From: an uncultured Candidatus Bathyarchaeia archaeon
Lineage (GTDB): Archaea; Thermoproteota; Bathyarchaeia; Bathyarchaeales; Bathyarchaeaceae
Direction: 5' to 3'
DNA length: 64,000 nucleotides
NCBI GenBank assembly: GCA_964556565.1
Contig: CAZKWF010000001.1
Coordinates: 33,035 to 97,034, forward strand
The position numbers were made by a program, and so were the translations under genes. Of the stretch, positions 36,211 to 61,783 are shown piece after piece; the first letter of the stretch is position 1; each line of letters begins with the position of its first letter. The notes beneath the pieces were generated by a model. That model made no database searches, was not told where the DNA came from, and saw nothing but the letters and a program-made list of their open reading frames with translations.

Positions 36211-36228
36211 TCTTTGTAGCTCCTTATG

Positions 36229-39307: not shown

Positions 39308-39351
39308 CTCCACAGACCTATCATGCATTTGAAAATTGGAAAGCCTCAGGG

Positions 39352-44517: not shown

Positions 44518-44574
44518 AAAGAATGATAGCGTCTGACCTTTGGCCTGCGTTGTGATATGTCCGTAATGCATACA

Positions 44575-44778
44575 TTATGTTTTCTTAATGAATTCGATTA
44601 GTGCAATTATGATGCCAGCTAACGCTACTAGTCCGCCTAGAATTTCCATGGCTGTCCAGAAGTTCATGTCGCCTCTTGTGATGAAAGCTATTAGACAGTT
44701 CCTCTGAGAAGCAGAAAAACCCAAAGCTGCGCCAACAACAAAAAGAACCAAACCGAACAGAATCAAGCTTCTCCTCAC
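44575..44778 (-). CDS. 67-aa two-TM membrane protein (copy 2, GTG start)
   Basis: Paralog of 38041-38244. Confidence 0.6.
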   Translation of the reverse strand: MRRSLILFGLVLFVVGAALGFSASQRNCLIAFITRGDMNFWTAMEILGGLVALAGIIIALIEFIKKT

Positions 44779-44840
44779 AAGTCAACCCAACAAATCAACA
44801 TCTAGGATAATGCAAAGGCAAAATATTCTTTTAAACTTTG
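44575..44840. repeat. Direct repeat, right copy (pairs with 38041-38307)
   Basis: See the left copy. Same orientation, 6534 bp apart. Confidence 0.85.
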
Positions 44841-45016
44841 ATTATCATTCAAGGAGTAACTCGACGCTTTGATAATTATGCTGCGTTTCGAACAACCATT
44901 CATGACTAAACCCTCAATTTAATATGTCCAACTTTCAAACATGAAAACCTAAAATAATGCTTGTATTTTTCTCCTTCCCATAGCAGGAGACCAGCAAGCC
45001 TGTGTATACACCATGC

Positions 45017-45757: not shown

Positions 45758-45784
45758 TTGAAGGGTCGACTACTCATTTGACTT

Positions 45785-47038: not shown

Positions 47039-47230
47039 TAGTAAATATCTCCCTTCAACTTGTTAAGTAGAACTGCTTATTTAAGCATAGCAGAACTCGA
47101 AAACTTACCTTCCTAGCTTATGCGCACTTGGATAAATAATAAAATGTTTGTTAAGAAAAAAAGGAAAACTGTTCTTTTAATCTATTCTATCTCTGGAAAA
47201 GTTATAAGAGAACACGTGCTCTGATTAAAT

Positions 47231-47238
47231 TGCATGCA
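47231..47238. repeat. ATGCATGCAT-family palindrome (8-mer core)
   Basis: tgcatgca, 34 nt upstream of ATG 47272. Confidence 0.6.
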
Positions 47239-47271
47239 GTTTTTATATTCTGATTACTACTATCCTTAGTC

Positions 47272-48312: not shown

Positions 48313-48313
48313 G

Positions 48314-49351: not shown

Positions 49352-49776
49352 GGTATAAAGAAAGTTGGTGAATCTAGGGTACCCTGATAGTCCACTATAC
49401 CTTCTAAAAGAAGATGTGTAAACAAGGTCCTCACTATTAACGATGAATATCCAGTGAGTCGCGAAGCATCTGTGACAGACAACTTCTTTTTCTTGTACAG
49501 CATTTTCATTAACGGTGATAGAATGCTACTTAGATTGTTCTCCTTTGTCGCAAGCGTAAAAAAGGAGTAAGGTCTCTCTTTTTTGCTCAATGCAATATGC
49601 TCGTAGATTTTTCGTTCGATCACCAATTTCTTTATGATTTCATTTACTTCATTTCTTGATGTATCACTTGCTACATTTTGGATAATATGAATCAAATGTG
49701 GTTTGTTCACGATCAATCTTGATCCTATCTGCTCAAAAACGTGTTCCACGATTTTCTTGTAACTGTTGATTGTCAA
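49336..49776 (-). CDS. Small protein with two wHTH-like halves
   Basis: 146 aa. 16-nt overlap with the downstream Hint-like gene. Confidence 0.45.
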   Translation of the reverse strand: MTINSYKKIVEHVFEQIGSRLIVNKPHLIHIIQNVASDTSRNEVNEIIKKLVIERKIYEHIALSKKERPYSFFTLATKENNLSSILSPLMKMLYKKKKLSVTDASRLTGYSSLIVRTLFTHLLLEGIVDYQGTLDSPTFFIPWDMK

Positions 49777-49787
49777 AGTAGTTCAAC

Positions 49788-50831
49788 CTAAAGTTTGATT
49801 CTGAGAAACCTTTTTTCGCCGTATCTGTCTGGAAGTATCTGATACCTATGCCTATCGTTTGTTTGCGCCTCATTTATCATTTCCCTAGCTTCAGATTCCT
49901 TCAGTCTATAACCTTGTAAGCCTTTTTGAATCACCAGTATATTAATCAAAGTGTTTATGTCGCAAACATTGAAAGCTGGGTCACGCAATTTTTCGTACAG
50001 GTTCTCTACATGTTCAATCGTTTCTTGACCTGAAACTATCTTGGTTCCTGGGTATCCACAGTTTCTAAGAAGAGTGTGCAATAGATCCTCCTGCGCTCGT
50101 GAAACAACTGTCTTGTAATTTGGTAAGAATCTAATGATTTCACAGTATGGCCTTACAACGTTTTTCTCTAAGAAGGAAATTCTATTGTTGCTGGGTCCCT
50201 CTCTATTTACAAGGTTCAAGTCTTCCATGATGCCAAGCGAAGGCTTTATCTTTGGATATAACGCCTTGGCGGTTTTTCCTCGTCTAACCGCTTTTCTATA
50301 CAACTTTAGATATCTCCTTCGAATGTCTAGACTATGAACAGACTCGACAGCAATCTTGAGTGCGTGGACGTAGACGGAGAAAGCATGATCAACCAATTCG
50401 TTTTTTGGCAGCATTTTTCTCGCCTTATACCAGCGGTAATCGTCACGGATTTCCCCAAATCTCTCAAGGTGATCGTGAAGCGATTTCACCATAGCATAAT
50501 TCTCCAATAGAAAACATCTCAAAAAAAAGATCTTGAATTCAACGGGAAGCTCTATCGGAATTTCCTCTACTGGTGTGAAAAATTCCAGAGTTCTACCCCA
50601 TGGAGTCAATTTGTTGTTCCTGAAAATCACTTCCAGTTCTTTTGCTATCGTTATTGTGTATTGTATAGACCTTTTATTCTGTTTATATCCTTCTTCAATC
50701 CCATGGATTTTCCTGAAGGAACTCAATGCCTCTCCAAACTTTCGAGCAATCATCATATCAGAACTTGGCTCTCTTGTCTTGACGCATCCCTTGAGAAGCA
50801 GTGCAAAATAGACAATCTTGTCAACTTGCAT
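49788..50831 (-). CDS. Alpha-helical hypothetical protein of the island operon
   Basis: 347 aa with no recognisable motif. Gaps of 11 and 23 nt to the neighbouring genes. Confidence 0.5.
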   Translation of the reverse strand: MQVDKIVYFALLLKGCVKTREPSSDMMIARKFGEALSSFRKIHGIEEGYKQNKRSIQYTITIAKELEVIFRNNKLTPWGRTLEFFTPVEEIPIELPVEFKIFFLRCFLLENYAMVKSLHDHLERFGEIRDDYRWYKARKMLPKNELVDHAFSVYVHALKIAVESVHSLDIRRRYLKLYRKAVRRGKTAKALYPKIKPSLGIMEDLNLVNREGPSNNRISFLEKNVVRPYCEIIRFLPNYKTVVSRAQEDLLHTLLRNCGYPGTKIVSGQETIEHVENLYEKLRDPAFNVCDINTLINILVIQKGLQGYRLKESEAREMINEAQTNDRHRYQILPDRYGEKRFLRIKL

Positions 50832-50854
50832 ATGTGTATTAATAAGAAGAGGCT

Positions 50855-52267
50855 TCAGTACTCTTTTCCACCATGAACGCTTACACGGGGTCTTATTTTG
50901 ATTGTGAATAGTCTGTTGACCGTCTCAGAGGAGATTATGCAGTACCCAAGTTTTAGGTCTCTACCTACCTCTTTAAAGAGATTTCTTTGTATTTCTCTCG
51001 AACCTATCTTTGCTCTTTCGAAATCTGATGTATTTCTCATGTTATATGCAGTCAAGATGTCTTGATCTCTTGATAGGCTATGGATAATTCCGATGTCTAG
51101 ATTCGCCTGAATTGAGGCATCGAGAGCTGAAGGCGATTGTGTGGCGAAAGCAGCAGATAACCCTATGTTCCGACCCTCTTTAACATATTTTAAAAGAGGC
51201 CCTTTTGAAGGCGGACTTCTTGTGGCAGGTATGTAGTTATGTGCTTCATCCATCAGGATCCAACCTCTTGGCGTCCACTCTTTTTTTAGTAAGAGTTGAA
51301 GTTTCTTAATTTCCCCTTTGTAATCAGATGAAGATGACTTGGTTAATAATTCCAATCTCTTCTCACATTCGTCCGTTATACCTCGGGCTTGGAAGATTTT
51401 TCGAGTTAGGACACCAACCACAGTCGTTCTCAACTCTTGTTCTAGATCCCGTAGCAACAAAACTGAGATTTTTCCATCCTTGAATATTTCCCGCACAGGT
51501 ATAGAGAAAGAGCCAAATATTTTTGCCAATTCAAGAGACCGTACTCTTCTAAATGCCGCATCCAAAGTTTTTTGTTCATATCGGTTCTTGGTTGAAGATG
51601 ATTCAAGCTTCGAATAAATATCAGAAAATGAAATTTCATCTTGCTCTTGCAGTGAAGTAATTAGATCCATGAATAGCTGTCCAAGGGGATCGGCTATCGG
51701 ATCTAATCCAAACATAAAACACCAATCTGCAGGTTCAAGATCTTTTAGGCTCAGCGAAAACTCAGTGAACTCAGGCGGATAATAATCCCTCTTGTATCCG
51801 TATGGAAAATAGAAGTCCGCAGGGACTTTTTCCTCCTTAATTCCCCATCTTTCAAGTTCGTTAATTCTCTCTTTTCCCTCCATGCTGGCTAGGTATTGCA
51901 TGCCCCAAAATACGTTGAGGGAATCAAACACTATAACAGCTTGGTGATCCTTCATCTGATTTATCCACTGCTTGCTAACTAGGCCCTCTGCAAGCACACC
52001 TAATGTATAGCTCTTGCCACTACGTCTTTTTCCCATAACGTAAACTATGTGGGCTCTATCAGTGTCCATCCAGACATCACAAGAATTAGTATCATATTCA
52101 TTGGATTTGCCAAGATATATACAAGATGGCGAATCCTCAGATGAGGAGCCAATGATCATGCCAGTTTTGGATGACCATGGCTTTTGTGGCTTAAGTTTTG
52201 GCAGAAAGCGATACCATTGTTCAAAAAGGATTCGTCTGAATTCAGGAATGTTTTCTGGTTTATCCAT
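50855..52267 (-). CDS. HerA/FtsK-superfamily ATPase (DUF87-like)
   Basis: 470 aa. Walker A MGKRRSGKSYTLG and Walker B WILMDEAHNYIP, plus GRNIGLSAAFATQSPSALD and GIIHSLSRDQD, as in HerA-type ATPases. Confidence 0.75.
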   Translation of the reverse strand: MDKPENIPEFRRILFEQWYRFLPKLKPQKPWSSKTGMIIGSSSEDSPSCIYLGKSNEYDTNSCDVWMDTDRAHIVYVMGKRRSGKSYTLGVLAEGLVSKQWINQMKDHQAVIVFDSLNVFWGMQYLASMEGKERINELERWGIKEEKVPADFYFPYGYKRDYYPPEFTEFSLSLKDLEPADWCFMFGLDPIADPLGQLFMDLITSLQEQDEISFSDIYSKLESSSTKNRYEQKTLDAAFRRVRSLELAKIFGSFSIPVREIFKDGKISVLLLRDLEQELRTTVVGVLTRKIFQARGITDECEKRLELLTKSSSSDYKGEIKKLQLLLKKEWTPRGWILMDEAHNYIPATRSPPSKGPLLKYVKEGRNIGLSAAFATQSPSALDASIQANLDIGIIHSLSRDQDILTAYNMRNTSDFERAKIGSREIQRNLFKEVGRDLKLGYCIISSETVNRLFTIKIRPRVSVHGGKEY

Positions 52268-52273
52268 ATCGAT

Positions 52274-53437
52274 CTACTCAACAAAACGTGAGTAAACATA
52301 TGGGGATTTGTCTAAGGCTGCGTTTCCAACAGCATTTGATAAGGCGTCGATCAATCTTCTCGGAGTTAGCTGAGACTCTTCAGTTATGCCTGCCAAAATT
52401 TGTTCCAAAGCTTCTTCAGAAAATGGATAAGTCGAATCATCGACTTTTTCATTTGGTGGGCTTTTAGCTGTCTTTGCTTTAATGTTGCATTTTGGGTCTC
52501 TCACGTATTGTATAACATCCTTCATAAACCTCATGGCATCAGGTTGTTCTAGTGTTGGGATTTCAATCCTGTTTCTCGGCCCTATTCTACTTATCACAGG
52601 CTCTTCGACAACTGTGGTTTCTGTTTCCCACCCACCAGCCTCAGTCGAGATTGACCAAATTACTGAAATGTACTTATTCGATTTGTCTGCCAATCTTAGA
52701 AATCCAAGGTTTAGTGAATCAAGTGCGTCATTGCTCAGGTCTTCCCAGCGTTCACACTCGTCCAACAGAATAATGATTTTCTTTTTCTCATAGGTCTCAA
52801 ACAATTTACCTATTGTTTCTAGCATCTTCACTAACATCTGTGGGTCAGCTTCTTTCAAATGAGAAGATACGCCTAAGTTGCTCAAATCTGAACTTGAGCT
52901 TGTGCTTCCTATCAGCCAGCGCCACACTAGGTTCTCGTCGGCCAAACTAATGCTCAGAACGCTCGCAAGATCATAATTAACTTCCTCAAGTCTCTTGTGG
53001 ATTGCAGCTGCCAGTTCGTCTCGCTTCCATCCAATTTTTTGCTTTATGAAATCTTGTTGTAGCTTTTGGAATAGCGTCAATATTTTTGGCTTACCTATAT
53101 TTTTGAGGATGTGTGCATACAAATCAAGAAACCTTGCATTTCTCGGGAAATCAGGGGCAGAGACGTACACAATCTCCACACCATATGGCGTTTTAGAAAG
53201 AGCTTGCTTAAGAGCAGTCGTCACCGTGAACAGAGTATGTGTCTTTCCTGCCCCATATGTACCAGTGACAAATCGCTTAGGACATCTAGCGGTTACAAGA
53301 TCAACTCGGATCTTTCTGGTTATTGAATCTACGTCGACTCCACTTCGTGGAACGTAAAAACCTGAATCTTTATCAGCGTATATTTCGAAGTTGTTTCTGC
53401 CTTTTTTAAGAGAGTATAGTTCTTGCACTGTAGACAC
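52274..53437 (-). CDS. ORC/BrxC-like P-loop ATPase
   Basis: 387 aa. Walker A TGTYGAGKTHTL and Walker B KIIILLDECERW. Shares the post-P-loop pattern (..F..LY..) with the 47272-48312 product. Confidence 0.7.
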   Translation of the reverse strand: MSTVQELYSLKKGRNNFEIYADKDSGFYVPRSGVDVDSITRKIRVDLVTARCPKRFVTGTYGAGKTHTLFTVTTALKQALSKTPYGVEIVYVSAPDFPRNARFLDLYAHILKNIGKPKILTLFQKLQQDFIKQKIGWKRDELAAAIHKRLEEVNYDLASVLSISLADENLVWRWLIGSTSSSSDLSNLGVSSHLKEADPQMLVKMLETIGKLFETYEKKKIIILLDECERWEDLSNDALDSLNLGFLRLADKSNKYISVIWSISTEAGGWETETTVVEEPVISRIGPRNRIEIPTLEQPDAMRFMKDVIQYVRDPKCNIKAKTAKSPPNEKVDDSTYPFSEEALEQILAGITEESQLTPRRLIDALSNAVGNAALDKSPYVYSRFVE

Positions 53438-53449
53438 AAAACAACCCTT

Positions 53450-54193
53450 CTAGTTGGAAATCTTAAACCTTTTCCAAGTAATAAGACTTGCTAATCTTGC
53501 TTTGGCTTCTCTAAATAATCTATCATCGTATATACAAAGAGAAAGTTCAGGGTTTCTAGAGAAGGTGAGGTTTTCCGAACCCAATAACAGGACTCGATTT
53601 CTCCAAGAATCTATGCTTTGTTCAAGCAAGTAGACCTTGGCATGTACACTTCCATGTAGACTTATTTTTCTAATACCTTGATTCCAGAGCCATCTAAGAG
53701 AGTTCTCAATACTATTTCTTAGATTAGCAGTTGCCGTCTTTTCCGGAGGTCGAGTTATGATCTGAACTCTATGCACCTTCTCCAAACATCTCTTGAAACG
53801 AGATTGATGTTCCTTTCCTATCACAATCCAAGGTGAACAGATCCAAAAACTCTCCAATTTTGGCAATTTTTCCATAAAAGACATGATGAAGTTACAAGCA
53901 TCATTCACCAAACGAGGTTTGCGGCTTTGCCGATGAAAATTCATTAGCGCCTGTAGAGAGCGTTTTCCAAATAGATATCCAAGATGGTAGAACCATTCCT
54001 TACCCTTATCTGTGAGACATACCATATCCTCTTTCACATCAATGAGAAGGGTACCAGACATCTGCTCAATCTGGTCAAACGATAGATTATATGTCGAAAG
54101 CACGCCCGAGAAATACACTCTAGAAACTGGACCGCGTTGAAGAACTGAGCAGATATTTAAGAGAGCTTCAAGACTTGCTGGTTTTGAACTCAT
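53450..54193 (-). CDS. wHTH + single-HKD phospholipase-D-family nuclease
   Basis: 247 aa. FWICSPWI, then LHGSVHAKVYLLE...LLLGSENLT (HxK...GSxN). The N-terminal ~90 aa are wHTH-like. Confidence 0.75.
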   Translation of the reverse strand: MSSKPASLEALLNICSVLQRGPVSRVYFSGVLSTYNLSFDQIEQMSGTLLIDVKEDMVCLTDKGKEWFYHLGYLFGKRSLQALMNFHRQSRKPRLVNDACNFIMSFMEKLPKLESFWICSPWIVIGKEHQSRFKRCLEKVHRVQIITRPPEKTATANLRNSIENSLRWLWNQGIRKISLHGSVHAKVYLLEQSIDSWRNRVLLLGSENLTFSRNPELSLCIYDDRLFREAKARLASLITWKRFKISN

Positions 54194-54340
54194 GAATTGA
54201 AACCAGCTTATGATTTACAAAAGTAATACTATTTATATTTCTCCGCCCCGCGAATCGAATTTTTAAGAAATAAACATTTCTCGCATGCGTGCATTTTCAA
54301 AGGTTGAGAAAGGCGGAAGAAAGCAATGTAGTTGTTATCT

Positions 54341-54348
54341 TGCATGCA
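54341..54348. repeat. ATGCATGCAT-family palindrome (8-mer core)
   Basis: tgcatgca. A degenerate gcatgcgtgcat lies at 54283-54294. Both sit between the island operon start and the amidohydrolase 3' end. Confidence 0.6.
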
Positions 54349-54471
54349 GAACATAGGGTGTCTGCAAGGAGATTATACGCGAATTGAAAGAGAAGGTTTT
54401 CACCTTTGTATTTGGTTCATATCTTAGACCCTGGTAGAAGCCGTCACACAGGCACACGATCCTTCAAACAA

Positions 54472-56046
54472 TCACTCTGACCTGACATAGACCACGTTTC
54501 CGCCTACAATGGTCATCTCCACTTTAACGTCTCTAATTTCATTAGGCGGGATTTCATGTGGTTCACGAGACAAAACTACGAGGTCCGCCAGTTTACCAAC
54601 ATCAATCAACCCCTTAATATCCTCTTCAAAAGATGCATACGCCGCGTTAACCGTGTAGAGACGTAGAGCATCATCCACACTGATTCGTTCCTCAGGAAAG
54701 GCTTCTCTCGCCACAGCCGCCCAAACGCCTAATAAAGGATCAATAGGCTCAACTGGACAATCTGACCCGCCAGTCGTCAACACACCCTCTTGAACCAGTG
54801 TTCTGAAAGGATAAACCCATCTAGCTCTGGTAGAACCTACACGATTTGCCACCCAGAAATCAGAAACAACAAAATGCGGCTGTACAGATGCTATCACCTT
54901 CAACTTCTTCATATGTTGAATCAGCCTCTCGTTAAGAACAGACGCGTGCTCTATACGGTGACGATGATTCTCCTTCGGCGCTTCCTTTAACGCGTTTTCC
55001 AGTACGGTCAACACCATGTCTATAGCCCGATCACCGATAGCATGTATGGCCAACTGAAAGCCAGCTCTATGTGCCTCCATAACAAGCGTATTCAGCTTCT
55101 CTTGAGTGTACAGCATCATTCCTTTCCTTGTAGGCTCATCTTGATACGGCTGAAATAAAGCTGCAGTACGCGCACCTAGAGAACCGTCTGAAAAGATTTT
55201 CACACTTCCAATTCGTACCCTGTTGTCTCCGAAGCCTGTGTGCATGCCTAAATCGATCAGATGGTCCAAAAGCTTCACTGAAACTATGACATACACTCTT
55301 AGAAGCAGTTTATTCTGTTCACGAAGCTTCTGGATAACGCGTATCTCGGTTGGTGAGCTGATCAGCCAGTGGACGCTGGTCAGTCCCGCTTCTACGGCTT
55401 TCTGGCACGCTAGACTGCACGCTTCTGTGAGTTCTTCCTCGCTGGGCTCCGGCTTCACCTCCCAAACTAGATTCATTGCATTTTCACGTAAGATGCCCGT
55501 CGGTTCGCCTGTTTTCGGATCTTTATCGATCTGTCCAGCGGGTGGAAGCGTGGCTTCTCTTGTAATGTTTGCTAGTTCTAATGCTTGGCTGTTTGCAACG
55601 CAGACGTGTCCGCATACGCGTGTAAGAATTACTGGGTTGTTCGGTGAAAACTTGTCCAAGTCCCATCGAGTAGGGTATCGTCTCTCTGTGAGGCGGTCTT
55701 GGTCCCATCCGCGGCCTAAAATCCATTGTCCTTTGCCTGTCTTTTGTATACGTTTTTTTAGTTTTTTCTGCATTTCTTTGATGGAGTTGACTCCTCTAAG
55801 GTTGATTTGTTTTAGTGATTTTCCGTATCCTGTGACGTGTGCGTGAGTGTCTATGAAGCCGGGAACAACGGTTTTTCCTTTAAGGCTTATTATCTTCGTG
55901 TTTTTTCCAATCCATGGTTTGATTTCTTTGTTTGTGCCCACTTCAATGATTCTGTCATCTTTGACGGCTATGGCTTGAGCGTGGGGCTTAGAAGGGTTCA
56001 TGGTCAAAACGTTTCCGTTGGTTAAAACCAAGTCTGCCCACATCAT
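54472..56046 (-). CDS. Amidohydrolase-3 (YtcJ-like) metal-dependent hydrolase
   Basis: 524 aa. PGFIDTHAHV (HxH), HAIGDRA and a GSDCPVEP tail. Confidence 0.85.
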   Translation of the reverse strand: MMWADLVLTNGNVLTMNPSKPHAQAIAVKDDRIIEVGTNKEIKPWIGKNTKIISLKGKTVVPGFIDTHAHVTGYGKSLKQINLRGVNSIKEMQKKLKKRIQKTGKGQWILGRGWDQDRLTERRYPTRWDLDKFSPNNPVILTRVCGHVCVANSQALELANITREATLPPAGQIDKDPKTGEPTGILRENAMNLVWEVKPEPSEEELTEACSLACQKAVEAGLTSVHWLISSPTEIRVIQKLREQNKLLLRVYVIVSVKLLDHLIDLGMHTGFGDNRVRIGSVKIFSDGSLGARTAALFQPYQDEPTRKGMMLYTQEKLNTLVMEAHRAGFQLAIHAIGDRAIDMVLTVLENALKEAPKENHRHRIEHASVLNERLIQHMKKLKVIASVQPHFVVSDFWVANRVGSTRARWVYPFRTLVQEGVLTTGGSDCPVEPIDPLLGVWAAVAREAFPEERISVDDALRLYTVNAAYASFEEDIKGLIDVGKLADLVVLSREPHEIPPNEIRDVKVEMTIVGGNVVYVRSE

Positions 56047-56198
56047 GAGACCTCCTTTGTAATTCCGATATGTTTTGAGACTATTTGAACAATCTTATCA
56101 ATTAATAAAACTCTTTAGAAATTCTGATAATTACAGATGCTTTTTGTTGGGATGAACAGTTTTCAGAATGTTTGTGGATGATTTTGAGGCTGTGAGTT

Positions 56199-56384
56199 TC
56201 AGCGTCGTCTTCTTCGTCTTCGCTTGAGCGGATTTTGGCCTGGGGTGCGTTGTAGGACTACTCGTTTTTCGTAATTGCGTCGGCATCGTACCCTTGGCAT
56301 TCGTGTTTTTCTCGGCGTGGTTGCGATCTTTGGGGTTTGTGACCGAACTTTTCCGGCTTTTGACAGTGATCCGTGTGTTGGCAT
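56199..56384 (-). CDS. rps30e: Ribosomal protein eS30
   Basis: 61 aa. MPTHGSLSKAGKVRSQTPKI matches the eS30 signature. Ends in an R7 run. Confidence 0.8.
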   Translation of the reverse strand: MPTHGSLSKAGKVRSQTPKIATTPRKTRMPRVRCRRNYEKRVVLQRTPGQNPLKRRRRRRR

Positions 56385-56480
56385 TTATTGTTCCTCTGTC
56401 CTGTGTACTTTTGTGTTGGTCGGGGTTCTTTTAAGTGTTTTTCTTTTTGTCCTTGATGTGTTTGTCCTGTTGTTTGCGCG

Positions 56481-56510
56481 TATCTCTCTTTAGGCCCCCT
56501 ATAATTTTTT
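56481..56510 (-). promoter_or_regulatory. Promoter/leader module copy
   Basis: tatctctctttaggccccctataatttttt. The CT-tract lies 99 nt from the eS30 ATG. Followed directly by ATGCAT. Confidence 0.6.
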
Positions 56511-56688
56511 ATGCATACATAAAGCGGTTAACATAGATCGTTTACATTTAAACATTATAGAGTGTAAAGAACGTGTAAAACTCCAAAAATCGGGGACTGA
56601 TGGGCTCCGCTTATATACATTTCAGAAATCAGTTTTTAGAAAAAAGAGAGGGGGAATGTTTTTCTCAGCAGATTCTTCTAAGGGCTAC

Positions 56689-57150
56689 TTATGATATTAC
56701 CCAGATGTACACACGTATCTCCTCCCAACGAATATCGTCGGGGGCTCTATGAACGAGGATCTGGTTGATGCTCTGCGCCCACCAGGAAGCACCATCGTTG
56801 TACCATTCACCATCATAATAGTATGCAAAGCCTCCATACAGCATTTGGTGGAGGTCACTATTTACCCACCTCCCAACCATATAAACGAAGAGCTCATTGG
56901 TTCCAAGATTGTGCTCGCATATGACCCCCCCAGGGCTAACTGCCATCCATCCACTGTCGTATGCTGGTGGACCCATAAATCCAAGCGGTAATGATTGATT
57001 CTCCAACACTTCAATTCTGGATTCAAGACCATAGAATGCTTCCCAAATCTGATCAAAGGGATTACCACCATTTGAAGCCATACTTGTTCCAATTAGGAAA
57101 CAGATGAGTGCAATGCTTGTTATCATAACAGCTTGTTTCTTCCCAATCAC
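56689..57150 (-). CDS. Small secreted/anchored hypothetical protein
   Basis: 153 aa. N-terminal TM/signal segment (VMITSIALICFLIGT), W/Y/G-rich. Confidence 0.5.
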   Translation of the reverse strand: MIGKKQAVMITSIALICFLIGTSMASNGGNPFDQIWEAFYGLESRIEVLENQSLPLGFMGPPAYDSGWMAVSPGGVICEHNLGTNELFVYMVGRWVNSDLHQMLYGGFAYYYDGEWYNDGASWWAQSINQILVHRAPDDIRWEEIRVYIWVIS

Positions 57151-57258
57151 GTTATCACCCCCTTATCCCTTCTAACAACCTAACAGACTCTTTCAACCCA
57201 TACTAAACATTTGAGGAACTAACTTCTATAACATACATGCACAATGTAAAATTCCTTA

Positions 57259-57268
57259 ATGCATGCAT
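57259..57268. repeat. ATGCATGCAT palindrome
   Basis: Exact 10-mer, 109 nt upstream of the 57150 start. Confidence 0.7.
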
Positions 57269-57425
57269 AGTCACATCGAGTAGCCTTTTCTCCTTAGCAA
57301 GGATTCAGAATCTTTAAATCCTAGTGTGAGAATGTCGAATTAAATAGCGGTTGGTAATTTCTGGAGTACTAGATGTTCTGTTGTTTCTGGAAGTTTCTGG
57401 CTAACAAATAAATTGAGGTGATAAA

Positions 57426-57521
57426 ATGCCATATAAACCTAGAAAAAAGCGTATGCCAATTAAACAGGTATTAAGGATAGAAAAAGGATTTAGGATGGAG
57501 GACCTGGAAGGGAAATACTGA
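57426..57521 (+). CDS. Candidate 31-aa basic micro-ORF
   Basis: MPYKPRKKRMPIKQVLRIEKGFRMEDLEGKY*. GAGGTGA lies 6 nt upstream of the ATG. The stop abuts ATGCATGCAT (57521-57530). Confidence 0.25.
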   Translation: MPYKPRKKRMPIKQVLRIEKGFRMEDLEGKY

Positions 57522-57530
57522 TGCATGCAT
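57521..57530. repeat. ATGCATGCAT palindrome
   Basis: Exact 10-mer. Confidence 0.7.
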
Positions 57531-57581
57531 TAAATTTGTTGGTTTCTACATCTTCGTAACATCCTCTGATTCTTCAAGAGC

Positions 57582-57612
57582 AACAAATCCAACATCAAAA
57601 TAATCCATGCAT
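57582..57612 (+). repeat. 31-nt direct repeat, left copy (AACAAATCCAACATCAAAATAATCCATGCAT)
   Basis: 29 of 31 positions identical to 59922-59952. Lies 74 nt beyond the 3' end of 57686-59524. Confidence 0.8.
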
Positions 57613-57685
57613 ACTGAAAATCCGTTAGAAAAAATGGAGTGTACGGGAGATATCTCCACATTTTTGTTGCTCGCGTAGAGGGCGG

Positions 57686-59524
57686 TTAAGCCAAGTTGGC
57701 AATGTAGATATCGATGAGTTCTCGAATCTCTACCTGCGCTGTACAGTCCACGATCCAGTCGTTTCCGTCAGGTGACAAGCCGCAACCATCAACGTGCCGT
57801 CGTGTGTTCTCCAGCAGCTTCATCGCTTCATCAATATTGCCGTCAGCCACGGCTAGTTCGACATCGTTGAGTATGTTGATCATGGCATTCCTAAGACCTC
57901 GGCTACGACTTCGATCCTTGAAAGCACTATCTGGCAAAGCGTTTATGGCATTCTGAAGCCACTCCACGTCTTCCCCGTCTGGTATGCCGTCGTCGTCAGT
58001 ATCAGAGTCCAACGGGTCAGTTCCGTACTCAACCTCCAAACCATCAGTGAGACCATCGTCGTCAGTATCGGAGTCTAGGGGATCAGTGCCGTAGACGTCA
58101 ACCTCGTCACCATCCGTGAGTCCATCGTCGTCACTATCAGGGTCCAAGGGGTCAGTACCGTAAACATTAACCTCGTCACCGTCAGTTAAGCCGTCGTCGT
58201 CGCTGTCCGTGTCTAGTGGGTCTGTACCATAGACATTAACTTCGTCACCGTCTGTCAGTCCATCGTCGTCGCTATCAGAGTCATCCGGGTCTGTGCCCAT
58301 CGCGATCTCCGTTCCATCCATGAGACCGTCGTCGTCGCTGTCCAAGTCAATTGCGAATGTTAGATTTCCAAGCGGTGGGGTGTATGTTGCGTTGATTGCT
58401 CCGATTTCGGGTTCAAGGAGGGGAACTGGAAGGTTGCCCATACCTACGAGGGTTCCGACACCTGGGTCGAGGCCTAGGATGTTAGTTGCTGCAACTGCGT
58501 CTCCGATTGTATCATCTAGACCTATCTGCTGGTAGAGGGGGCCTAGGCTGCCGGAGAATATGTTGATAGTTCGATCACCAACTATGGGGTCCAAGAAGCC
58601 CTTCATGTCGAGGTTCAGGTCTATGTCTGCAGATGTATTCAGCCAGTGGAGAACGGGTGTTAATAGTGCATTGACGGTATCAGGTTCATCTGGGAGCTGA
58701 ACGGTAACATCTAGAGTCTCACCGGCAGTTCCCCACTCGAGGATGCTTGGAAACCCTGGAAACCCCAATATCGGACCTGGATCTGTGATGTTAGCTCCAG
58801 TGGCATCGATGAAAGCCACCGCGCCACCGGCACCGCCTCCTATAGGTGTATCAGGAAAGTCATCTAGAGGCACAGGCGAAAGCGTAAGGGCGCTTGTTAA
58901 ACTCGCATCAAGTATGTGAAGGGTGAAGAGAGTCAAACCGATTGTACTACTACTCATAGGGACAACGACAGACGGTTCTCCGTTGAGAGGTGCTGTGAAG
59001 TTTGCTGATCCTGTGGCCAGATCCATGGGTACTGGTACGTTGTCGATAAGTTCAAGTTCTACGAGAAAGGGAATGATAGCGGCACCGAAGGGAATTATTA
59101 GCTCAGTCCAGGCTAGCGCGGTGACATTGAAAGAGACGGTGATCACTGCTGATGCATCAAGGCTGATCTCTGGGCCAGAATCATCGGTGGGTGTGTAGGT
59201 TATCTGTAGTGGCATGGGTTGTCCGGGCAGAATATCCGCAGTGTCATAGGTGAGAGTTATGTCAACTCCCATGTCAACCATGACATTAGCCGTTCCATTG
59301 ATGTCAAATTCGTAATTGATTAGTTCCTCACCAAAAGGTCCTAGAAGCGCATCGTCTATGTTTTCGTCAAACGTGAAAGTAGCGTTGAATCCAAGTCGCA
59401 GATGCTCCGTAATGGTGACCTCGGTTTGGGCATGTACAGATGGGACGAGTGCAGACGGAAACAACACCAAGGAAGCGAACATCAGGATTATCAGGCTCAA
59501 TGTGCCTACGTGGTTTCTTCTCAT
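57686..59524 (-). CDS. Secreted protein with thrombospondin-type-3-like Ca-binding repeats
   Basis: 612 aa. Signal/TM segment at the N-terminus, with about 6 tandem units TDPLDxDSDDDGLTDGDEVNVYG. Confidence 0.75.
   Translation of the reverse strand: MRRNHVGTLSLIILMFASLVLFPSALVPSVHAQTEVTITEHLRLGFNATFTFDENIDDALLGPFGEELINYEFDINGTANVMVDMGVDITLTYDTADILPGQPMPLQITYTPTDDSGPEISLDASAVITVSFNVTALAWTELIIPFGAAIIPFLVELELIDNVPVPMDLATGSANFTAPLNGEPSVVVPMSSSTIGLTLFTLHILDASLTSALTLSPVPLDDFPDTPIGGGAGGAVAFIDATGANITDPGPILGFPGFPSILEWGTAGETLDVTVQLPDEPDTVNALLTPVLHWLNTSADIDLNLDMKGFLDPIVGDRTINIFSGSLGPLYQQIGLDDTIGDAVAATNILGLDPGVGTLVGMGNLPVPLLEPEIGAINATYTPPLGNLTFAIDLDSDDDGLMDGTEIAMGTDPDDSDSDDDGLTDGDEVNVYGTDPLDTDSDDDGLTDGDEVNVYGTDPLDPDSDDDGLTDGDEVDVYGTDPLDSDTDDDGLTDGLEVEYGTDPLDSDTDDDGIPDGEDVEWLQNAINALPDSAFKDRSRSRGLRNAMINILNDVELAVADGNIDEAMKLLENTRRHVDGCGLSPDGNDWIVDCTAQVEIRELIDIYIANLA
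57965..58348. repeat. About 69-bp tandem coding repeats (TSP3-like units)
   Basis: Recurrent ccgtcgtcgtc...gggtc(a/t)gt(a/g)cc blocks on the plus strand. Confidence 0.8.
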
Positions 59525-59921
59525 GTGTTTTCACCATTAGGCACACCTTTTGAATCATTTTAAATATTAGACTTGTGAAAGAAAACTCTAGAACGGTTCT
59601 TCTCTTCTTCAGCACGTAAAAAAGGGTTCGCCGGAGCTAACTGGCGGGCTTGCGACCTAGCTGATGTATCATGGCATGCATACTCCGATTTATAGGCATA
59701 CACGAACTTGAGCACAGTTGGGTGCTTTTATATTCAAGAGCCGTTGGAGTTGTGTCCGCCTGCCTGCTATTGCCAAATCATACCCATGCGCGCGCGCAGA
59801 AAAAAACCAGCAAATCAGCTTTGTGCGTTAAGAATTTCAAAGATGCCTTCATTGAAAATCAGAGAATTTCATGTTTTTCCGGACTTGTTGCTTTCCTTGT
59901 TGGTTTTTTGATGTTAAAAGT

Positions 59922-59952
59922 AACAAATCCAACATCAAATTAATTCATGCAT
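59922..59952 (+). repeat. 31-nt direct repeat, right copy
   Basis: AACAAATCCAACATCAAATTAATTCATGCAT. Lies 398 nt upstream of the 59524 start. Confidence 0.8.
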
Positions 59953-59955
59953 GCA
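59946..59955. repeat. ATGCATGCAT-family palindrome
   Basis: catgcatgca, overlapping the end of the 31-nt direct repeat. Confidence 0.7.
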
Positions 59956-60097
59956 AACTCATACGCACAAAAGAGTTTAAATAGCCAGCATGTCAACTGA
60001 TTGAACACACGAGAATTAGAATTCCATGAGAATGCTGGTTTTTCGTTGACTGTTAAATGGAGGTGTAGTTCGATTGTCGTATAGAGAAAAGCGAGAA

Positions 60098-60217
60098 ATG
60101 CACAAGGCTGTATGCGCTGATTGCGGTCAAGAATGTGAAGTTCCCTTCAAACCTGACGGAACCAGGCCCATATATTGCCGAGAATGCTATTCCAAACGAA
60201 GACCCCCAAGAAGATAA
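60098..60217 (+). CDS. 39-aa CxxC-x17-CxxC zinc-ribbon protein (below the ORF-track length cutoff)
   Basis: MHKAVCADCGQECEVPFKPDGTRPIYCRECYSKRRPPRR*. Matches the widespread C..CG....VPF.P...RPvYC..C small-protein pattern. Confidence 0.65.
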   Translation: MHKAVCADCGQECEVPFKPDGTRPIYCRECYSKRRPPRR

Positions 60218-60272
60218 TAAGCTTATTAGCTAAATCTTCGGTCCGTCTTACGCACTTCCTTCCTTTTTATTA

Positions 60273-60283
60273 CATGCATGCAT
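60273..60283. repeat. ATGCATGCAT-family palindrome
   Basis: catgcatgcat, 56 nt after the zinc-ribbon stop. Confidence 0.7.
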
Positions 60284-60339
60284 CAAAATTCGTTATACAC
60301 ATCTTTTACGTTCATGTTAAAAGAATGTAAACATCTTCA

Positions 60340-60350
60340 ATGCATGCATG
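60340..60350. repeat. ATGCATGCAT-family palindrome
   Basis: atgcatgcatg, 8 nt beyond the 3' end of 60358-60675. Confidence 0.7.
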
Positions 60351-60357
60351 GATAGTA

Positions 60358-60675
60358 CTATCTTACAAATGTCTGCGCGTGCGCTTTGTCTGTGCATTCT
60401 GTTAACTTTTTGCATGTTAGGCATTCTTCTGGAATCTGACCTCCACTAGAGAATAGCTTCAGATATCCAAAGTAGTGCGGGCAACTTGACGGGTCTTCTT
60501 TTCTCACTTTGCGAGAATGGCTTGGGAATTTCAAGCCTTCCTCTTCCAAGGTGAGATCAATTCGGTTTTTGCAGTGTGGGCAAGCGTAGTAAGTTTCCCG
60601 CGGGATCCTTGAGAGATCGATCTGTGCAATAAGCTGATTAATCTTCTTTCCACAGCCTGGATGAGGACACTTCAC
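60358..60675 (-). CDS. Cys-rich zinc-finger protein
   Basis: 105 aa. CPHPGCG...CPHC plus a further C..C pair. Confidence 0.5.
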   Translation of the reverse strand: MKCPHPGCGKKINQLIAQIDLSRIPRETYYACPHCKNRIDLTLEEEGLKFPSHSRKVRKEDPSSCPHYFGYLKLFSSGGQIPEECLTCKKLTECTDKAHAQTFVR

Positions 60676-60801
60676 TGGCCTTTCAACCCGATATATTAAG
60701 TATCAATCGGAGGCGTAGTTCCTAACACTCGTAGCATTCTTCTATTGTCAGATTAAACGTTTATGAACAGACAGTCAACATTCAAAAACGCGCATAGAAG
60801 T

Positions 60802-60810
60802 TGCATGCAT
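60802..60810. repeat. ATGCATGCAT-family palindrome
   Basis: tgcatgcat, 42 nt beyond the 3' end of 60852-61553. Confidence 0.7.
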
Positions 60811-60851
60811 TCGAAGGCAGTGGTTGAGCTATAACAAAGATAAGCAGTGAA

Positions 60852-61553
60852 TCAAGTTAGGCCAGAAATGAAAGCAAAAGCCATGATGAGAAGGATAATT
60901 CCACTAACTTTGGGAATGTATTTCTCGTAGTGTTTGACTTTTGATTCGACTTTTTGATATGCTTTGATGCTGAAAAGTGTGACTCCAATCAAAGCTATGG
61001 TAACCGATAGAGCATAGCATATCATTAGAGTGAATGGGTTAACGCCTCCAATAGTCAGCGCTAAGAGTGCAAACTCTTCTTCATGGGCGAAGCCGAGCAC
61101 AAAAGCGAAGACCGCTATGCCTAGAAGAGTCAACTTCACTCTCTTTTTGTGTTTGTGCCAATGACTGTGTCTCCCTGTGTCAGGGTGCTCATGCTCGTGT
61201 TCATGTTCAAACTCCCCAAGGTTCTCATGGAGATGCCCATGTTGACTTTCACCTTCATCTTCAACCTTTTCAAAGAAAAACCTGAGGGCAAGCAATATCA
61301 AAACTGCGCCCGCAAGGTACTTCATGATCTGAGATGGAAAAGTAACGAAAGAACTGATCAAGATGTAAACTATGACAACCGCAATTGATGAGATAAAATG
61401 GAAAAGTGAAATAATAGTTGAGCTAACAAAACCGTAGAATATGGGTCTTCGGGTCCTTGAGGAATATAAAAAAGCGACTGGCCAGCCATGTGCGGGCTCC
61501 AGCCCATGTAACAACCCTATTGCGATCACAGCAAGAAAAACCGAATCAAACAA
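60852..61553 (-). CDS. His-rich-loop metal (Ni/Co-type) transporter-like membrane protein
   Basis: 233 aa, about 6 TM helices. GLLHGLEPAHGWP motif and cytoplasmic loop HGHLHENLGEFEHEHEHEHPDTGRHSHWHKH. Confidence 0.6.
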   Translation of the reverse strand: MFDSVFLAVIAIGLLHGLEPAHGWPVAFLYSSRTRRPIFYGFVSSTIISLFHFISSIAVVIVYILISSFVTFPSQIMKYLAGAVLILLALRFFFEKVEDEGESQHGHLHENLGEFEHEHEHEHPDTGRHSHWHKHKKRVKLTLLGIAVFAFVLGFAHEEEFALLALTIGGVNPFTLMICYALSVTIALIGVTLFSIKAYQKVESKVKHYEKYIPKVSGIILLIMAFAFISGLT

Positions 61554-61783
61554 CTTCCATTCACTTGCTCTTCTTAACGAACCGCTTTAAGAAAAATCTT
61601 CCCGTTCGTCATGTATGCATCCCGAACAAACTGTGACTCCTTGACTTGTTTTGGTTTGGATAGAAACTCTGTGACTCTACATGAATGTACCTGTTCGCTT
61701 TTGAGGGAAGGTTAGGGGTTCTGGGTGTCATGTTGAAACTAAGCCTTATATTGATGGGTATTGTTTGTTCGGGAGTGGAATTC

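Follow-up and report, generated by a model that had tools for sequence, protein, structure and literature searches.

A 10-bp palindrome that probably marks the joints of strain-variable gene segments in a narrow clade of Bathyarchaeia

In the Neisseria dRS3/NIME arrays and in shufflons, small variable intergenic units and invertible segments, respectively, are bounded by inverted-repeat or palindromic sites of about 19–20 bp; both systems are tied to strain-to-strain rearrangement and to trans-acting site-specific recombinases, the known ones being Piv/IS110-like and Rci. REPs, which are associated with RAYT transposases, are imperfect palindromes of 20–40 nt that fold into hairpins, and the cyanobacterial palindrome HIP1 (GCGATCGC) has been reported at deletion borders. 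HIP1 is further described as linked to plasmid recombination and to small mobile repeat insertion (PMC5861425; PMC4390886), and as abundant both within and between genes at positions conserved between genomes, which implies selection (PMC5861425). In T4-type phages, PeSL is described as a short conserved intergenic motif concentrated in hyperplastic regions, whose copies recombine and thereby insert, delete or replace ORFan genes among genomes that are otherwise nearly identical (Arbiol et al. 2010, PMC2839356).

The window analysed here is a stretch of 64,000 nt of a Bathyarchaeia chromosome. It was compared with roughly 150 kb of related sequence, and not with whole genomes, from close relatives whose contigs (designated L001, L002 and so on) were drawn from independent NCBI, JGI, ENA and Logan assemblies. 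The motif ATGCATGCAT is a 10-base perfect palindrome with purines and pyrimidines in strict alternation, and can be written as (ATGC)n, where n ranges from about 1.5 to 3.25. An earlier note on this DNA had described the palindrome as over-represented, and the excess is real: the core TGCATGCA occurs 11 times (at 27070, 30564, 38414, 47231, 54341, 57260, 57522, 59948, 60275, 60341 and 60802) against 0.83 expected, a count reached in 0 of 100 dinucleotide-preserving shuffles, and among all 8-mers of the window it shows the strongest excess (z = 13, order-2 Markov). With at most one mismatch, ATGCATGCAT matches 17 sites (2.3 expected). The coordinates reported earlier were accurate to within 1–2 nt, and all nine sites then listed as degenerate hold ATGCAT or a one-transition variant.

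Ten of the 11 core copies are intergenic, an enrichment of about 32-fold over the 0.31 expected, while the single coding copy compares with 0.77 expected; the pattern is therefore one of intergenic enrichment and not of coding depletion. The coding copy is probably a chance occurrence outside the system, and is missing from the orthologues in L122, L156 and L166. All 10 copies in the close relative L002 are intergenic, so that 20 of 21 copies pooled over the window and L002 fall in an intergenic fraction of about 0.245 (binomial P ~1e-11). The spread along the window is uneven, none of the ten intergenic copies being located in 1–27 kb (6.7 kb intergenic) and all ten in 27–64 kb (8.2 kb intergenic; P ~0.0025 from the counts).

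Motif copies fall at the points where homology between close relatives breaks off. Of 30 such breakpoints, eight are no more than 10 nt from a copy, where 4.5% would be expected (P = 4e-5). About two thirds of the breakpoints are away from any copy, which indicates that other processes rearrange the region too, and some of the non-motif breakpoints are located at a different repeat family. No copy was observed in any conserved syntenic intergenic gap examined, and all 10 copies in L002 are at joints or within L002-specific DNA; the copies at 38413, 47230, 54285, 54340, 57521 and 60340 lie inside strain-specific DNA beyond the reach of the comparison. Segments between copies measure 46 nt to 7 kb, usually carry one self-contained gene in either orientation and, depending on the strain, are present, absent, duplicated elsewhere or inverted, and a single backbone joint bears many alternative neighbours. 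Joint lengths of 6, 8–10 or 12–13 nt match the (ATGC)n registers, with the number of ATGC units per joint changing in 4-nt steps. The phyletic range is narrow: L002 has many copies, L122, L156 and L166 have the motif too, and relatives at 84% identity or less, like all non-Bathyarchaeia controls, have next to none; the sister contig L037 has GCGCGCGC in every intergenic gap instead.

Table 1 Motif copies, segments and backbone blocks in the window (positions in nt).
Feature	Position	Strand	Remarks
Motif copy CTGCATGCAT	27069–27078		Left joint of SIS segment
Variable segment with SIS-domain gene (27085–28248)	27079–28294	-	Pfam SIS
Degenerate copy ATGCGTGCAT	28295–28304		Right joint of SIS segment
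Motif in CDS	30564–30571		Only copy inside a CDS (DEAD-box helicase)
ATGCAT	38277–38282		End of block shared with L002; ATGCATGCATGCA at same point in L002
16-kb segment	38283–54430		Missing in L002, where 2.9 kb of unlike DNA stand instead (synteny)
Motif copy TTGCATGCAT	38413–38422		
Degenerate copy ATGCATACAT	44566–44575		Left edge of duplicated small-membrane-protein segment
Small-membrane-protein gene segment, second copy	44576–44830	-	91% identity to 38041–38290
Motif copy	47230–47239		Between R-M pair and BrxD-like ATPase gene; adjoins TATA-like box TGCATGCAgTTTTTATAT
Degenerate copy ATGCGTGCAT	54285–54294		
Motif copy	54340–54349		124 nt past amidohydrolase stop; near right end of 16-kb segment
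Conserved backbone block	54430–56510	-	Amidohydrolase 54472–56046 (Pfam Amidohydro_3) and 0.47-kb upstream region
Joint copy ATGCATACAT	56511–56520		End of backbone block
Segment c1	56521–57258	-	Gene for 153-aa secreted or membrane protein (56689–57150); missing in L117, L034
Motif copy ATGCATGCAT	57259–57268		Joint in L117
Segment c2	57269–57520	+	31-codon ORF 57427–57521 preceded by GAGGTGAT (read from sequence); present in L117
Motif copy ATGCATGCAT	57521–57530		
Segment c3	57531–57602		72-nt gene-less unit between two copies; imperfect inverted arms TTTGTTGG / CCAACA
Copy ATCCATGCAT	57603–57612		End of 37-nt repeat D5; joint in L117
Segment c4	57613–59946	-	Gene for TSP3-repeat secreted protein (57686–59524) and 420-nt ORF-free stretch; missing in L117, L034, L002
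Motif copy ATGCATGCAA	59947–59956		Joint versus L002
Segment c5	59957–60273	+	Gene for 47-aa zinc-ribbon protein (60075–60218), own TTTAAATA box; present in L117, missing in L002, L034, L116
Motif copy ATGCATGCAT	60274–60283		In L117 fused straight to the 60801 joint of the window
Segment c6	60284–60339		56-nt gene-less unit
Motif copy ATGCATGCAT	60340–60349		10 nt past stop codon of 105-aa gene
Segment c7	60350–60800	-	Gene for 105-aa Cys-rich protein (60358–60675); missing in L117, L002, L034, L116
Joint copy TTGCATGCAT	60801–60810		Downstream of Ni/Co-transporter gene
Conserved backbone	60811–61610	-	NicO/RcnA-like Ni/Co-transporter gene (60852–61553)
Degenerate copy ATGTATGCAT	61611–61620		L002, L034, L121 carry different sequence at this point

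As listed in Table 1, seven motif-bounded segments are arrayed over 4.3 kb of the window (56521–60800), and in relatives some of them are missing, replaced or inverted. The backbone block to its left is 88–91% identical in nucleotides to L002 and L117, with its upstream part also common to L034, and at the joint that ends it four different continuations are observed (window, L002, L034 and L117). L034 joins window position 56520 straight to 60802 through a single ATGCATGCAT, and L002 has a different 2.45 kb in place of 56520–60802. L117 corresponds to ...56516 / 57256–57612 / 59916–60280 / 60801..., without c1, c4 and c6 plus c7, and every one of these joints is at a copy. The end of c1 (the motif followed by aagtggtttaacatagat...) recurs at position 9080 of L002rc and, in opposite orientation, beside the transporter in L121; the stop codon of the c2 ORF overlaps the next motif copy.

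At the right-hand end of the array, the conserved sequence past the transporter stop, ...ccactgccttcga(c) followed by the motif, is continued by six unrelated sequences among the window and seven relatives. The six haplotypes are those of the window, of L002, L119 and L120 (99.9–100% identical across the joint), and of L034, L116, L117 and L121. On the other side of the transporter gene, exact motif copies were found in L116 and L117 at the 61611 point, where L002 carries an insertion of 3.8 kb with the gene for a 1172-aa ATPase/TPR protein.

The copy at 27070 sits in a 22-nt gap between the SIS gene and a convergent gene for a 228-aa protein (26376–27062). Homology ends at 27070 versus L166/L167 and at 27049–27060 versus L122/L156, and resumes at 28303 (L122) and 28314 (L166/L167). 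The prediction that the segment between 27070 and 28295 would be variable was borne out: it is missing in L122, L123 and L156–L159, and in L166/L167 a DUF2061 gene plus TGCATGCA takes its place. In L156–L159 a racemase gene body is replaced by a bare TGCATGCATGCA exactly at the deletion joint. The 16-kb segment encodes PolB, a RadA-like protein, two DUF72 proteins, an R-M pair and HerA-like, BrxD-like and PLD-domain proteins, and is itself subdivided by the copies at 38413, 44566, 47230, 54285 and 54340. Homology of repeat D2 begins about 5 nt past the copy at 44566–44575; the small-membrane-protein segment is one segment in two genomic contexts (38041 and 44575).

The position of the motif at points of insertion, deletion, swap and flip between close relatives argues for a mark of rearrangement joints and not for a transcription or regulator signal. 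Of the three roles put forward in the earlier note, that of a boundary element comes closest, as the boundaries of strain-variable DNA segments and not of transcripts. The best reading of the motif is as the break-and-rejoin joint of lineage-specific gene-segment shuffling, and we put the probability that ATGCATGCAT is the joint sequence left where accessory segments join each other or the backbone in this clade at roughly 0.62. DNA would be broken and rejoined within the palindrome, with each newly inserted segment flanked by copies on both sides and each loss leaving a solo copy. The self-complementarity of the site would allow segments to insert or flip in either orientation, and copies would be found at gene ends because only gene-sparing joints survive. 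As claimed earlier, many copies lie shortly beyond stop codons, 7 of the 10 intergenic ones being 0–125 nt past a stop on the ORF map. Some events have a copy at one end only (L166), and L156 has a copy at a joint where no relative has one, which fit poorly with simple site-by-site exchange. The shortness and full symmetry of the site are more in keeping with a restriction-endonuclease-like or another small sequence-specific DNA enzyme, combined with end joining, than with the sites of classical integrases or transposases. Against the main reading stand also the length of the site, 10 bp being to our knowledge shorter than any known integrase or transposase site, and the searches of the window and of five related loci, which yielded no recombinase, transposase or nuclease able to act on it. 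As catalyst, a dedicated enzyme is tentatively given somewhat under half of the weight, and host microhomology-mediated recombination the remainder.

A possible but clearly less probable alternative is that the palindrome is a passive hot spot whose primary role lies elsewhere, as a protein-binding or Z-DNA-prone nucleoid or regulatory element in accessory DNA, with indels arising by host microhomology-mediated recombination between identical 8–10-bp copies, as proposed for phage PeSL cassettes and HIP1-bordered deletions. The lack of a dedicated enzyme in the sequences searched is consistent with such a role, as are the 4-nt register of the joint lengths, which out-of-register pairing would give, the 4–5-fold enrichment of alternating purine-pyrimidine runs of at least 10 nt in the intergenic DNA of the clade, and the TATA-like boxes that some copies adjoin (47231, 57522, and 56520 on the minus strand). 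It leaves unexplained why copies are restricted to variable DNA and absent from the intergenic DNA of 1–27 kb, why the L156 deletion joint has a copy without a parental one in any relative, and why 'empty' relatives such as L122 lack the motif; six haplotypes at one joint among strains 96–99% identical would also require a very high rate for microhomology of 8–10 bp. A transposon footprint appears improbable. A cut-and-paste family that targets ATGCAT and duplicates TGCA, with ends plus duplication reading ATGCATGCA...TGCATGCAT, would leave ATGCATGCAT or longer scars upon excision and adjacent deletions through intramolecular transposition. The 10-mer can indeed be parsed as A+TGCA+TGCA+T, empty sites show 1, 2 or 3 TGCA units, the solo TGCATGCATGCA at the L156 racemase site resembles an adjacent deletion plus scar, and gene-less mini-units with inverted arms (57531–57602; L002rc 12054–12128) resemble MITE remnants. 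The segments, however, share no terminal inverted repeats past the palindrome, none encodes a transposase, and known DDE transposases need longer end sequences.

It is very unlikely that the motif serves as a promoter element, such as the operator for a dimeric transcription factor, and that it coincides with breakpoints only incidentally. The perfect symmetry, the intergenic location and the neighbouring TATA-like boxes would suit the operator proposed earlier, but spacing to TATA boxes and start codons varies, flanks are not conserved, some copies separate convergent genes (27070; 60275 and 60341) or flank units that hold no gene, and neither the conserved syntenic gaps examined nor relatives at 84% identity or less have the motif; the breakpoint association also speaks against it. 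Still more doubtful is a transcription termination or RNA 3'-end element, which the earlier note had suggested and which the frequency of copies past stop codons would favor. The copies have no T-tract within or adjoining them, no conserved flank, no stable secondary structure (mean z = -0.39) and no Rfam match; some are solely upstream of genes (47231, 59948) or at gene-free joints, and the genes of the conserved 1–27 kb region have none. The least credible reading, a restriction-avoidance footprint in which coding DNA has lost ATGCAT or GCATGC, or else an artefact of assembly, is contradicted already by the counts. ATGCAT is slightly low in coding DNA (8 vs 14 expected), but the 8-mer is at expectation there, and the local R-M pair, earlier considered as possibly recognising ATGCAT or GCATGC, is BsaWI-like; the recognition site of the characterised BsaWI is WCCGGW. 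As to an artefact, assemblers use k-mers far longer than a 10-nt repeat, and assemblies made independently show the same joints (L002, L119 and L120; L001 and L114, which reproduce the window).

The closest analogues of the motif are HIP1, integron arrays and phage PeSL cassettes, and it falls under the definition of none of them. REP/BIME elements are likewise extragenic, often at 3' ends or between convergent genes, and species-specific, but the motif has neither structure nor conserved flanks, and no IS200/IS605-like gene was found in the sequences examined. In contrast to dRS3/NIME and shufflon sites, it measures 8–10 bp and no recombinase was identified. Integron cassette arrays (attC, IntI; including archaeal integrons, Ghaly et al. 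2022) resemble this locus in their mostly single-gene segments, recurring site, content that differs between close strains and occurrence of the same segment in different places. Here, however, there is no attC-type folded site of 55–140 nt and no integrase nearby, several arrays and joints are scattered along the chromosome and not on a single platform, and segments, apparently with promoters of their own, lie in both orientations, whereas the cassettes of integrons generally point the same way (PMC9668308). PeSL offers the best functional analogy for the passive hot spot; it is a composite promoter plus terminator stem-loop of demonstrated regulatory function in phages, while the present motif, in an archaeal chromosome, is conserved over 8–10 bp only, with no structure and no fixed promoter geometry. 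Unlike HIP1, the motif is at expectation in coding DNA, missing from conserved syntenic gaps and located at variable joints. It shares with HIP1 the form of a short perfect palindrome, massive over-representation, restriction to a lineage and the presence of alternative palindromes in sister lineages, here GCGCGCGC in L037.

No 8-mer in the window was more strongly over-represented than the palindrome core TGCATGCA (z = 13 under an order-2 Markov model), which had 11 exact copies against 0.83 expected; the 10-mer palindrome ATGCATGCAT, here called the motif, was found 17 times at one mismatch or less (2.3 expected). Because the counts far exceed expectation and no shuffle reached 11, the signal is real. 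It is an intergenic excess rather than a coding deficit: with genes mapped simply from ORFs (about 77% coding), 10 copies of the 8-mer were intergenic (0.31 expected) and 1 was coding (0.77 expected). On these counts, a restriction-avoidance footprint in coding DNA, one of the roles proposed in the earlier note, is rejected. Its copy coordinates were right to within 1–2 nt, and ATGCAT or a one-transition variant was present at all nine sites that it listed as degenerate. The copies were unevenly spread: between 1 and 27 kb, 6.7 kb of intergenic sequence contained none, and between 27 and 64 kb, 8.2 kb contained 10 (P about 0.0025).

Among relatives, the distribution of the motif was narrow. 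Contig L002 (JAUWDY010000033), the nearest genome contig in a one-genome-per-species scan that placed the window in Bathyarchaeia (amidohydrolase 89% aa identity), held 10 copies within 21.6 kb, every one intergenic. Related loci at about 88–91% nucleotide identity (L122, L156–L159, L166/L167) carried one to three sites per 15–20 kb, while Bathyarchaeia at 84% identity or less and every non-Bathyarchaeia control locus had essentially none; the L123 and L170 lineages count among the motif-free relatives. A core promoter or terminator role is therefore unlikely, as such elements would not be so narrowly restricted. Exact-protein look-ups with window proteins returned matches from the same sample only. 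Literature searches returned no report of TGCATGCA in archaea, the highly-iterated-palindrome papers that mention archaea being cyanobacterial or general-genomics work only, and nothing on Bathyarchaeota together with integrons and attC.

The key result of the analysis is that the copies represent REARRANGEMENT joints. Aligned with L002, the window shows mosaic synteny in which several homology blocks stop exactly at copies, and the comparison was extended to further close relatives drawn from JGI, ENA, Logan and NCBI assemblies. At 60801–60810, beyond the Ni/Co-transporter gene on its downstream side, a conserved left flank is followed by the motif and then by six unrelated continuations, which are listed in the table. 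The continuation in L034 means that window position 56520 is there fused to 60802 via one ATGCATGCAT, and that in L117 means that 60280 is fused to 60801. Expressed in window coordinates, the whole of L117 runs up to 56516, then through 57256–57612 and 59916–60280, and resumes at 60801. Since L117 and the alternative continuations break at copies, the 4.3 kb at 56521–60800 is an array of seven motif-bounded segments (c1–c7), subsets of which differ from strain to strain. The genes of the array are oriented -, +, -, +, - in order, and from the sequence each appears to have its own predicted TATA-like box and ribosome-binding site. The joints cannot be assembly artefacts, because a 10-nt repeat is far below assembler k-mers and the same joints occur in independent assemblies: L002, L119 and L120 have identical joints, and the window is reproduced by two others, L001 and L114.

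Depending on the strain, segments between copies are present, absent, duplicated or inverted, and solo copies are present where segments were lost. The window has two copies of a small-membrane-protein segment, at 38041 and 44575 (91% identity), the second of them edged by ATGCATACAT. An apparent restriction-modification (R-M) pair forms one motif-bounded segment in L002, and the R-M pair of the window lies between motif copies 44566 and 47230. Joint length was 6, 8–10 or 12–13 nt, corresponding to (ATGC)n in 4-nt registers.

By Pfam, the window is an ordinary archaeal chromosome segment with FEN1, a proteasome subunit, FttA/aCPSF1, methylmalonyl-CoA mutase, PolB and a RadA-like gene, together with the R-M pair (RE_BsaWI-like and N6_N4 methyltransferase) and HerA-like, BrxD-like and PLD-domain proteins. 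R-M systems are cargo of motif-bounded segments in both the window and L002. The earlier note had asked whether the adjacent R-M pair recognises ATGCAT or GCATGC; its endonuclease is BsaWI-like, which does not favour that idea, and characterised BsaWI has a CCGG-type site. At L002 11872–14398, a 171-aa ORF occupies one motif-bounded segment, and a 341-aa ORF and the 284-aa methyltransferase occupy the next; together they look like a putative R-M system carried as cargo. The GC content of the TSP3-repeat gene (0.49) exceeds that of its surroundings, which suggests a foreign origin. Upstream of this gene, a 420-nt ORF-free stretch (59525–59947), without an Rfam match even at an E of 1 or less, holds CATGCGCGCGCGCA (59785–59798) and the 37-nt repeat D5.

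Features of the window and of related loci. L-numbers are handles for related contigs or loci, and c1–c7 are the array segments; coordinates are those of the window unless stated otherwise.
Feature	Sequence	Position	Content or state
Strain-specific segment	window	38283–54430	16 kb; absent from L002 at this locus
Genes of this segment	window		family-B DNA polymerase (39352–41652), either a chromosomal paralogue or mobile-element cargo; RadA-like gene; two DUF72 genes; R-M pair (45017–47038)
Genes, right part	window	47272–54193	HerA-like, BrxD-like and PLD-domain genes
Methyltransferase gene	window	45785–47038	
N6/N4 DNA methyltransferase	L002	13544–14398 (L002 coordinates)	284 aa
TSP3-repeat secreted protein	window	57686–59524, minus strand	612 aa; bacterial TSP3 repeats; 69-nt tandem DNA repeats
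c1	window		153-aa protein gene
c2	window		31-codon ORF
c3	window		72 nt, gene-less
c4	window		TSP3-repeat protein gene
c5	window		47-aa zinc-ribbon gene
c6	window		56 nt, gene-less
c7	window		105-aa Cys-rich protein gene
Continuation at joint	window	60801–60810	105-aa gene segment
Continuation at joint	L002, L119, L120	60801–60810	all three identical
Continuation at joint	L034	60801–60810	directly amidohydrolase block
Continuation at joint	L116	60801–60810	novel DNA
Continuation at joint	L117	60801–60810	zinc-ribbon segment
Continuation at joint	L121	60801–60810	c1 segment end, inverted
SIS locus	L122		gene absent; motif absent there too
SIS locus	L166, L167		DUF2061 gene, then TGCATGCA, instead
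SIS locus	L123		upstream gene joined directly to MFS gene
SIS locus	L156–L159		SIS and neighbouring racemase gene both absent

The SIS-domain gene, which lies between copies 27070 and 28295, was predicted to be a variable segment, and the prediction held, the gene varying among strains. In L156–L159, TGCATGCATGCA marks the precise deletion joint, flanked on one side by what is left of the racemase gene's 3' end and on the other by sequence that corresponds to window position 29092. Overall, 8 of 30 homology breakpoints fell within 10 nt of a copy, compared to 4.5% of intergenic positions (P = 4e-5), and several further breakpoints were within 30 nt of a copy or at a bare ATGCAT (38282). The conserved syntenic intergenic gaps compared among relatives contained zero motif copies, and the copies away from known breakpoints all lie within strain-specific DNA lacking a comparator. 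An indel of about 1.5 kb (L156 2431–3768 versus window 19872–20250), consisting of prenyltransferase and C_GCAxxG_C_C genes that are in L156 and missing from the window, has the motif at neither end, so not all structural variation in the clade is motif-associated.

Conservation around the copies extends only 1 nt past the 8-mer on either side, where enriched flanking A/T yields the 10-mer; no extended conserved motif was found beyond that. The repeat D5 and a TTTGTTGG box accompany a subset of copies only. Folding of 98-nt windows around ten copies gave no more structure than shuffles (mean z = -0.39), leaving an attC-, REP- or terminator-like fold unsupported, and the window gave no Rfam match at the gathering threshold or at an E of 1 or less and no hit in a tRNA scan. 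Gene-less mini-units of 46–78 nt, each with two enclosing copies, were observed at 57531–57602, 60284–60339 and 54295–54340 of the window and at 12054–12128 of the L002 reverse complement. Some carry imperfect inverted arms (TTTGTTGG...CCAACA), and the units could be segment-end remnants or tiny mobile units.

This anatomy bears on the remaining roles put forward in the earlier note. A boundary element was half right: boundaries are marked, but they are those of DNA segments and not of transcripts. Termination finds no support, as the motif contains no T run, flanking T enrichment is absent beyond the +1 position and no structure was detected. The operator of a dimeric regulator is likewise disfavoured. 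A minority of copies adjoin TATA-like boxes; distances from copies to such boxes and to start and stop codons vary, copy 27070 occupies the 22-nt gap of one convergent gene pair, copies 60275 and 60341 both lie between a second such pair, and relatives lack the motif at orthologous positions.

The degenerate window copies ATGCGTGCAT, ATGCATACAT and ATGTATGCAT retain purine–pyrimidine alternation. In an analysis of the window, L002, L156, L166 and controls, alternating runs of at least 10 nt were 4–5 times enriched in intergenic DNA of the clade and not in the non-Bathyarchaeia controls; the window had 28–29 intergenic runs against 6.2 expected and 33–34 coding runs against 21–22. This may reflect a requirement for Z-DNA-prone tracts or simply transition-biased decay of old copies. 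Several non-motif alternating runs adjoin breakpoints (23467, 26294, 38310 and 63044). When other Bathyarchaeia loci were searched for analogous palindromes, apparent 3-copy ones were coding and compatible with chance, the sole exception being GCGCGCGC in L037 (JABAOF010003462.1, 1–5381), a contig of a sister lineage (transporter 83% aa identity). There it occurs at nine separate sites in 5.4 kb (about 0.05 expected from base composition), often as TATGCGCGCGC, at least once per intergenic gap and right at gene ends; at 2125–2142 it directly abuts TGCATGCA. A further relative, L168, has a few GCGCGCGC and a few TGCATGCA sites, all intergenic.

Other repeats were also observed at rearranged positions. 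One is a 43-nt inverted repeat whose arms, at 7875–7917 and 23499–23541, are separated by 15.6 kb and 98% complementary, and whose palindromic core is CCCCCCTAGGTAGGGGGG. It represents a second repeat family at rearrangement joints, unrelated to the motif: L122 and L166 become homologous to the window exactly from 23500, L122 has a copy of the repeat, and related TAGACCCCCC units lie at 36183–36208. About 200 nt of 10-nt tandem units (GGGAAAAGAT / TTCCTATCTT) occur in opposite orientation at 36142–36357 and 20087–20300. Position 36340 is another hypervariable hot spot, without the ATGCATGCAT motif, since the window and four relatives (L002, L122, L156 and L166) diverge there in sequence. A viral origin was considered and rejected: two cassette proteins had no relatives in IMG/VR, and an 18-mer of D5 matched phage tail-fibre coding sequence only, a coincidental match.

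In the main reading, to which we assign a probability of about 0.8, variable segments have recombination joints that are marked by the motif. A fuller statement, in which DNA would be broken and rejoined inside the palindrome, is judged probable. Integration would leave a copy at both ends of a new segment, loss of a segment would leave a solo copy, and the self-complementary site would permit either orientation. In principle, a 4-nt TGCA stagger at ATGCAT, filled in and blunt-joined, would give exactly A-TGCA-TGCA-T. Empty relatives (L122) lack the motif, the L166 segment has a copy at one end only, and the copy at the L156 deletion joint has no parental copy in any relative; these observations favour a motif that moves along with the events or arises from them over one that was simply there beforehand as a target or that serves as a regulatory site.

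With its perfect symmetry and its length of 8–10 bp, the site is closer to what a restriction-endonuclease-like enzyme would recognise than to the sites of integrases or transposases. Searches of the window, L002, L122, L156 and L166 with Pfam, NCBIfam and PADLOC yielded no candidate integrase, transposase or nuclease. For lack of a candidate enzyme in the available sequences, passive microhomology-mediated recombination between abundant copies stays a serious rival, as does the footprint of a TGCA-duplicating transposon. The latter is compatible with the (TGCA)n register variation and with the gene-less units with inverted arms, and is opposed by the segments sharing no ends beyond the palindrome; a MITE or IS would have common terminal repeats of more than about 10 nt and a direct target duplication on its flanks. 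A dedicated enzyme behind the motif is possible, at somewhat under even odds. Less likely than not, and offered tentatively, is an undescribed archaeal system of gene-segment capture and shuffling, in which a lineage-specific enzyme would cut and rejoin at a short alternating purine–pyrimidine palindrome, its site being (TGCA)n here and (GC)n in a sister lineage. Such a system would build integron-like, orientation-free accessory arrays at several chromosomal sites, without attC or a tyrosine integrase.

Few uncultured sediment archaea are as abundant as Bathyarchaeia, and little is known of how they acquire and shed genes. In the DNA analysed here, near-identical strains exchange accessory genes at joints that a 10-base palindrome pinpoints, among them genes for surface proteins and small zinc-finger proteins, R-M systems and a defence-type gene island. 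With a dedicated enzyme behind it, the process would amount to site-specific DNA rearrangement of a new kind, at a site that is very short and orientation-neutral; this would bear on archaeal genome plasticity and could be of use as a tool. Even with a passive process, flexible regions of these genomes have a practical marker in the motif. Since a sister lineage has a different palindrome, nature has set up an experiment in which phyletic profiling could point to the responsible gene.

Among known systems, integron cassettes are tandem, generally co-oriented short ORFs separated by a site (PMC9668308). The motif arrays share their strain-variable content but not their co-orientation, the array genes being in mixed orientation. 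Integron attC sites are imperfect inverted repeats of 55–140 nt with R/L boxes and single-strand folding, whereas only an 8–10-nt core is conserved here, and an integron has an adjacent integrase gene, whereas scanned ORFs of the window and L002 gave no Phage_integrase or IntI match. REP/RAYT systems combine a 20–40-nt imperfect hairpin palindrome with a RAYT gene; the motif does not conform, and no Y1 transposase was found in the sequences examined. The HIP1 literature describes the cyanobacterial palindrome as abundant inside ORFs and positionally conserved (PMC5861425) and links it to recombination (PMC5861425, PMC4390886). Like HIP1, the motif is an 8-bp palindrome that is lineage-specific and hyper-abundant, is replaced by other versions in sister lineages and is linked to recombination, but it is neither abundant in ORFs nor positionally conserved, and its copies mark the ends of homology. 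HIP-type palindromes also have cognate orphan methyltransferases that recognise the core; the methyltransferases seen here are those at 45785–47038 of the window and 13544–14398 of L002. In T4-type phages, PeSL cassettes are concentrated in hyperplastic regions, where recombination between copies produces indels of ORFan genes (PMC2839356), a feature that the motif shares. PeSL is a composite of promoter and terminator stem-loop, whereas the motif has no conserved flank or structure; for modular shuffling mediated by a motif, PeSL is nevertheless the closest analogy in function. The motif is best described as an iterated-palindrome or cassette-junction type system in an archaeal chromosome.
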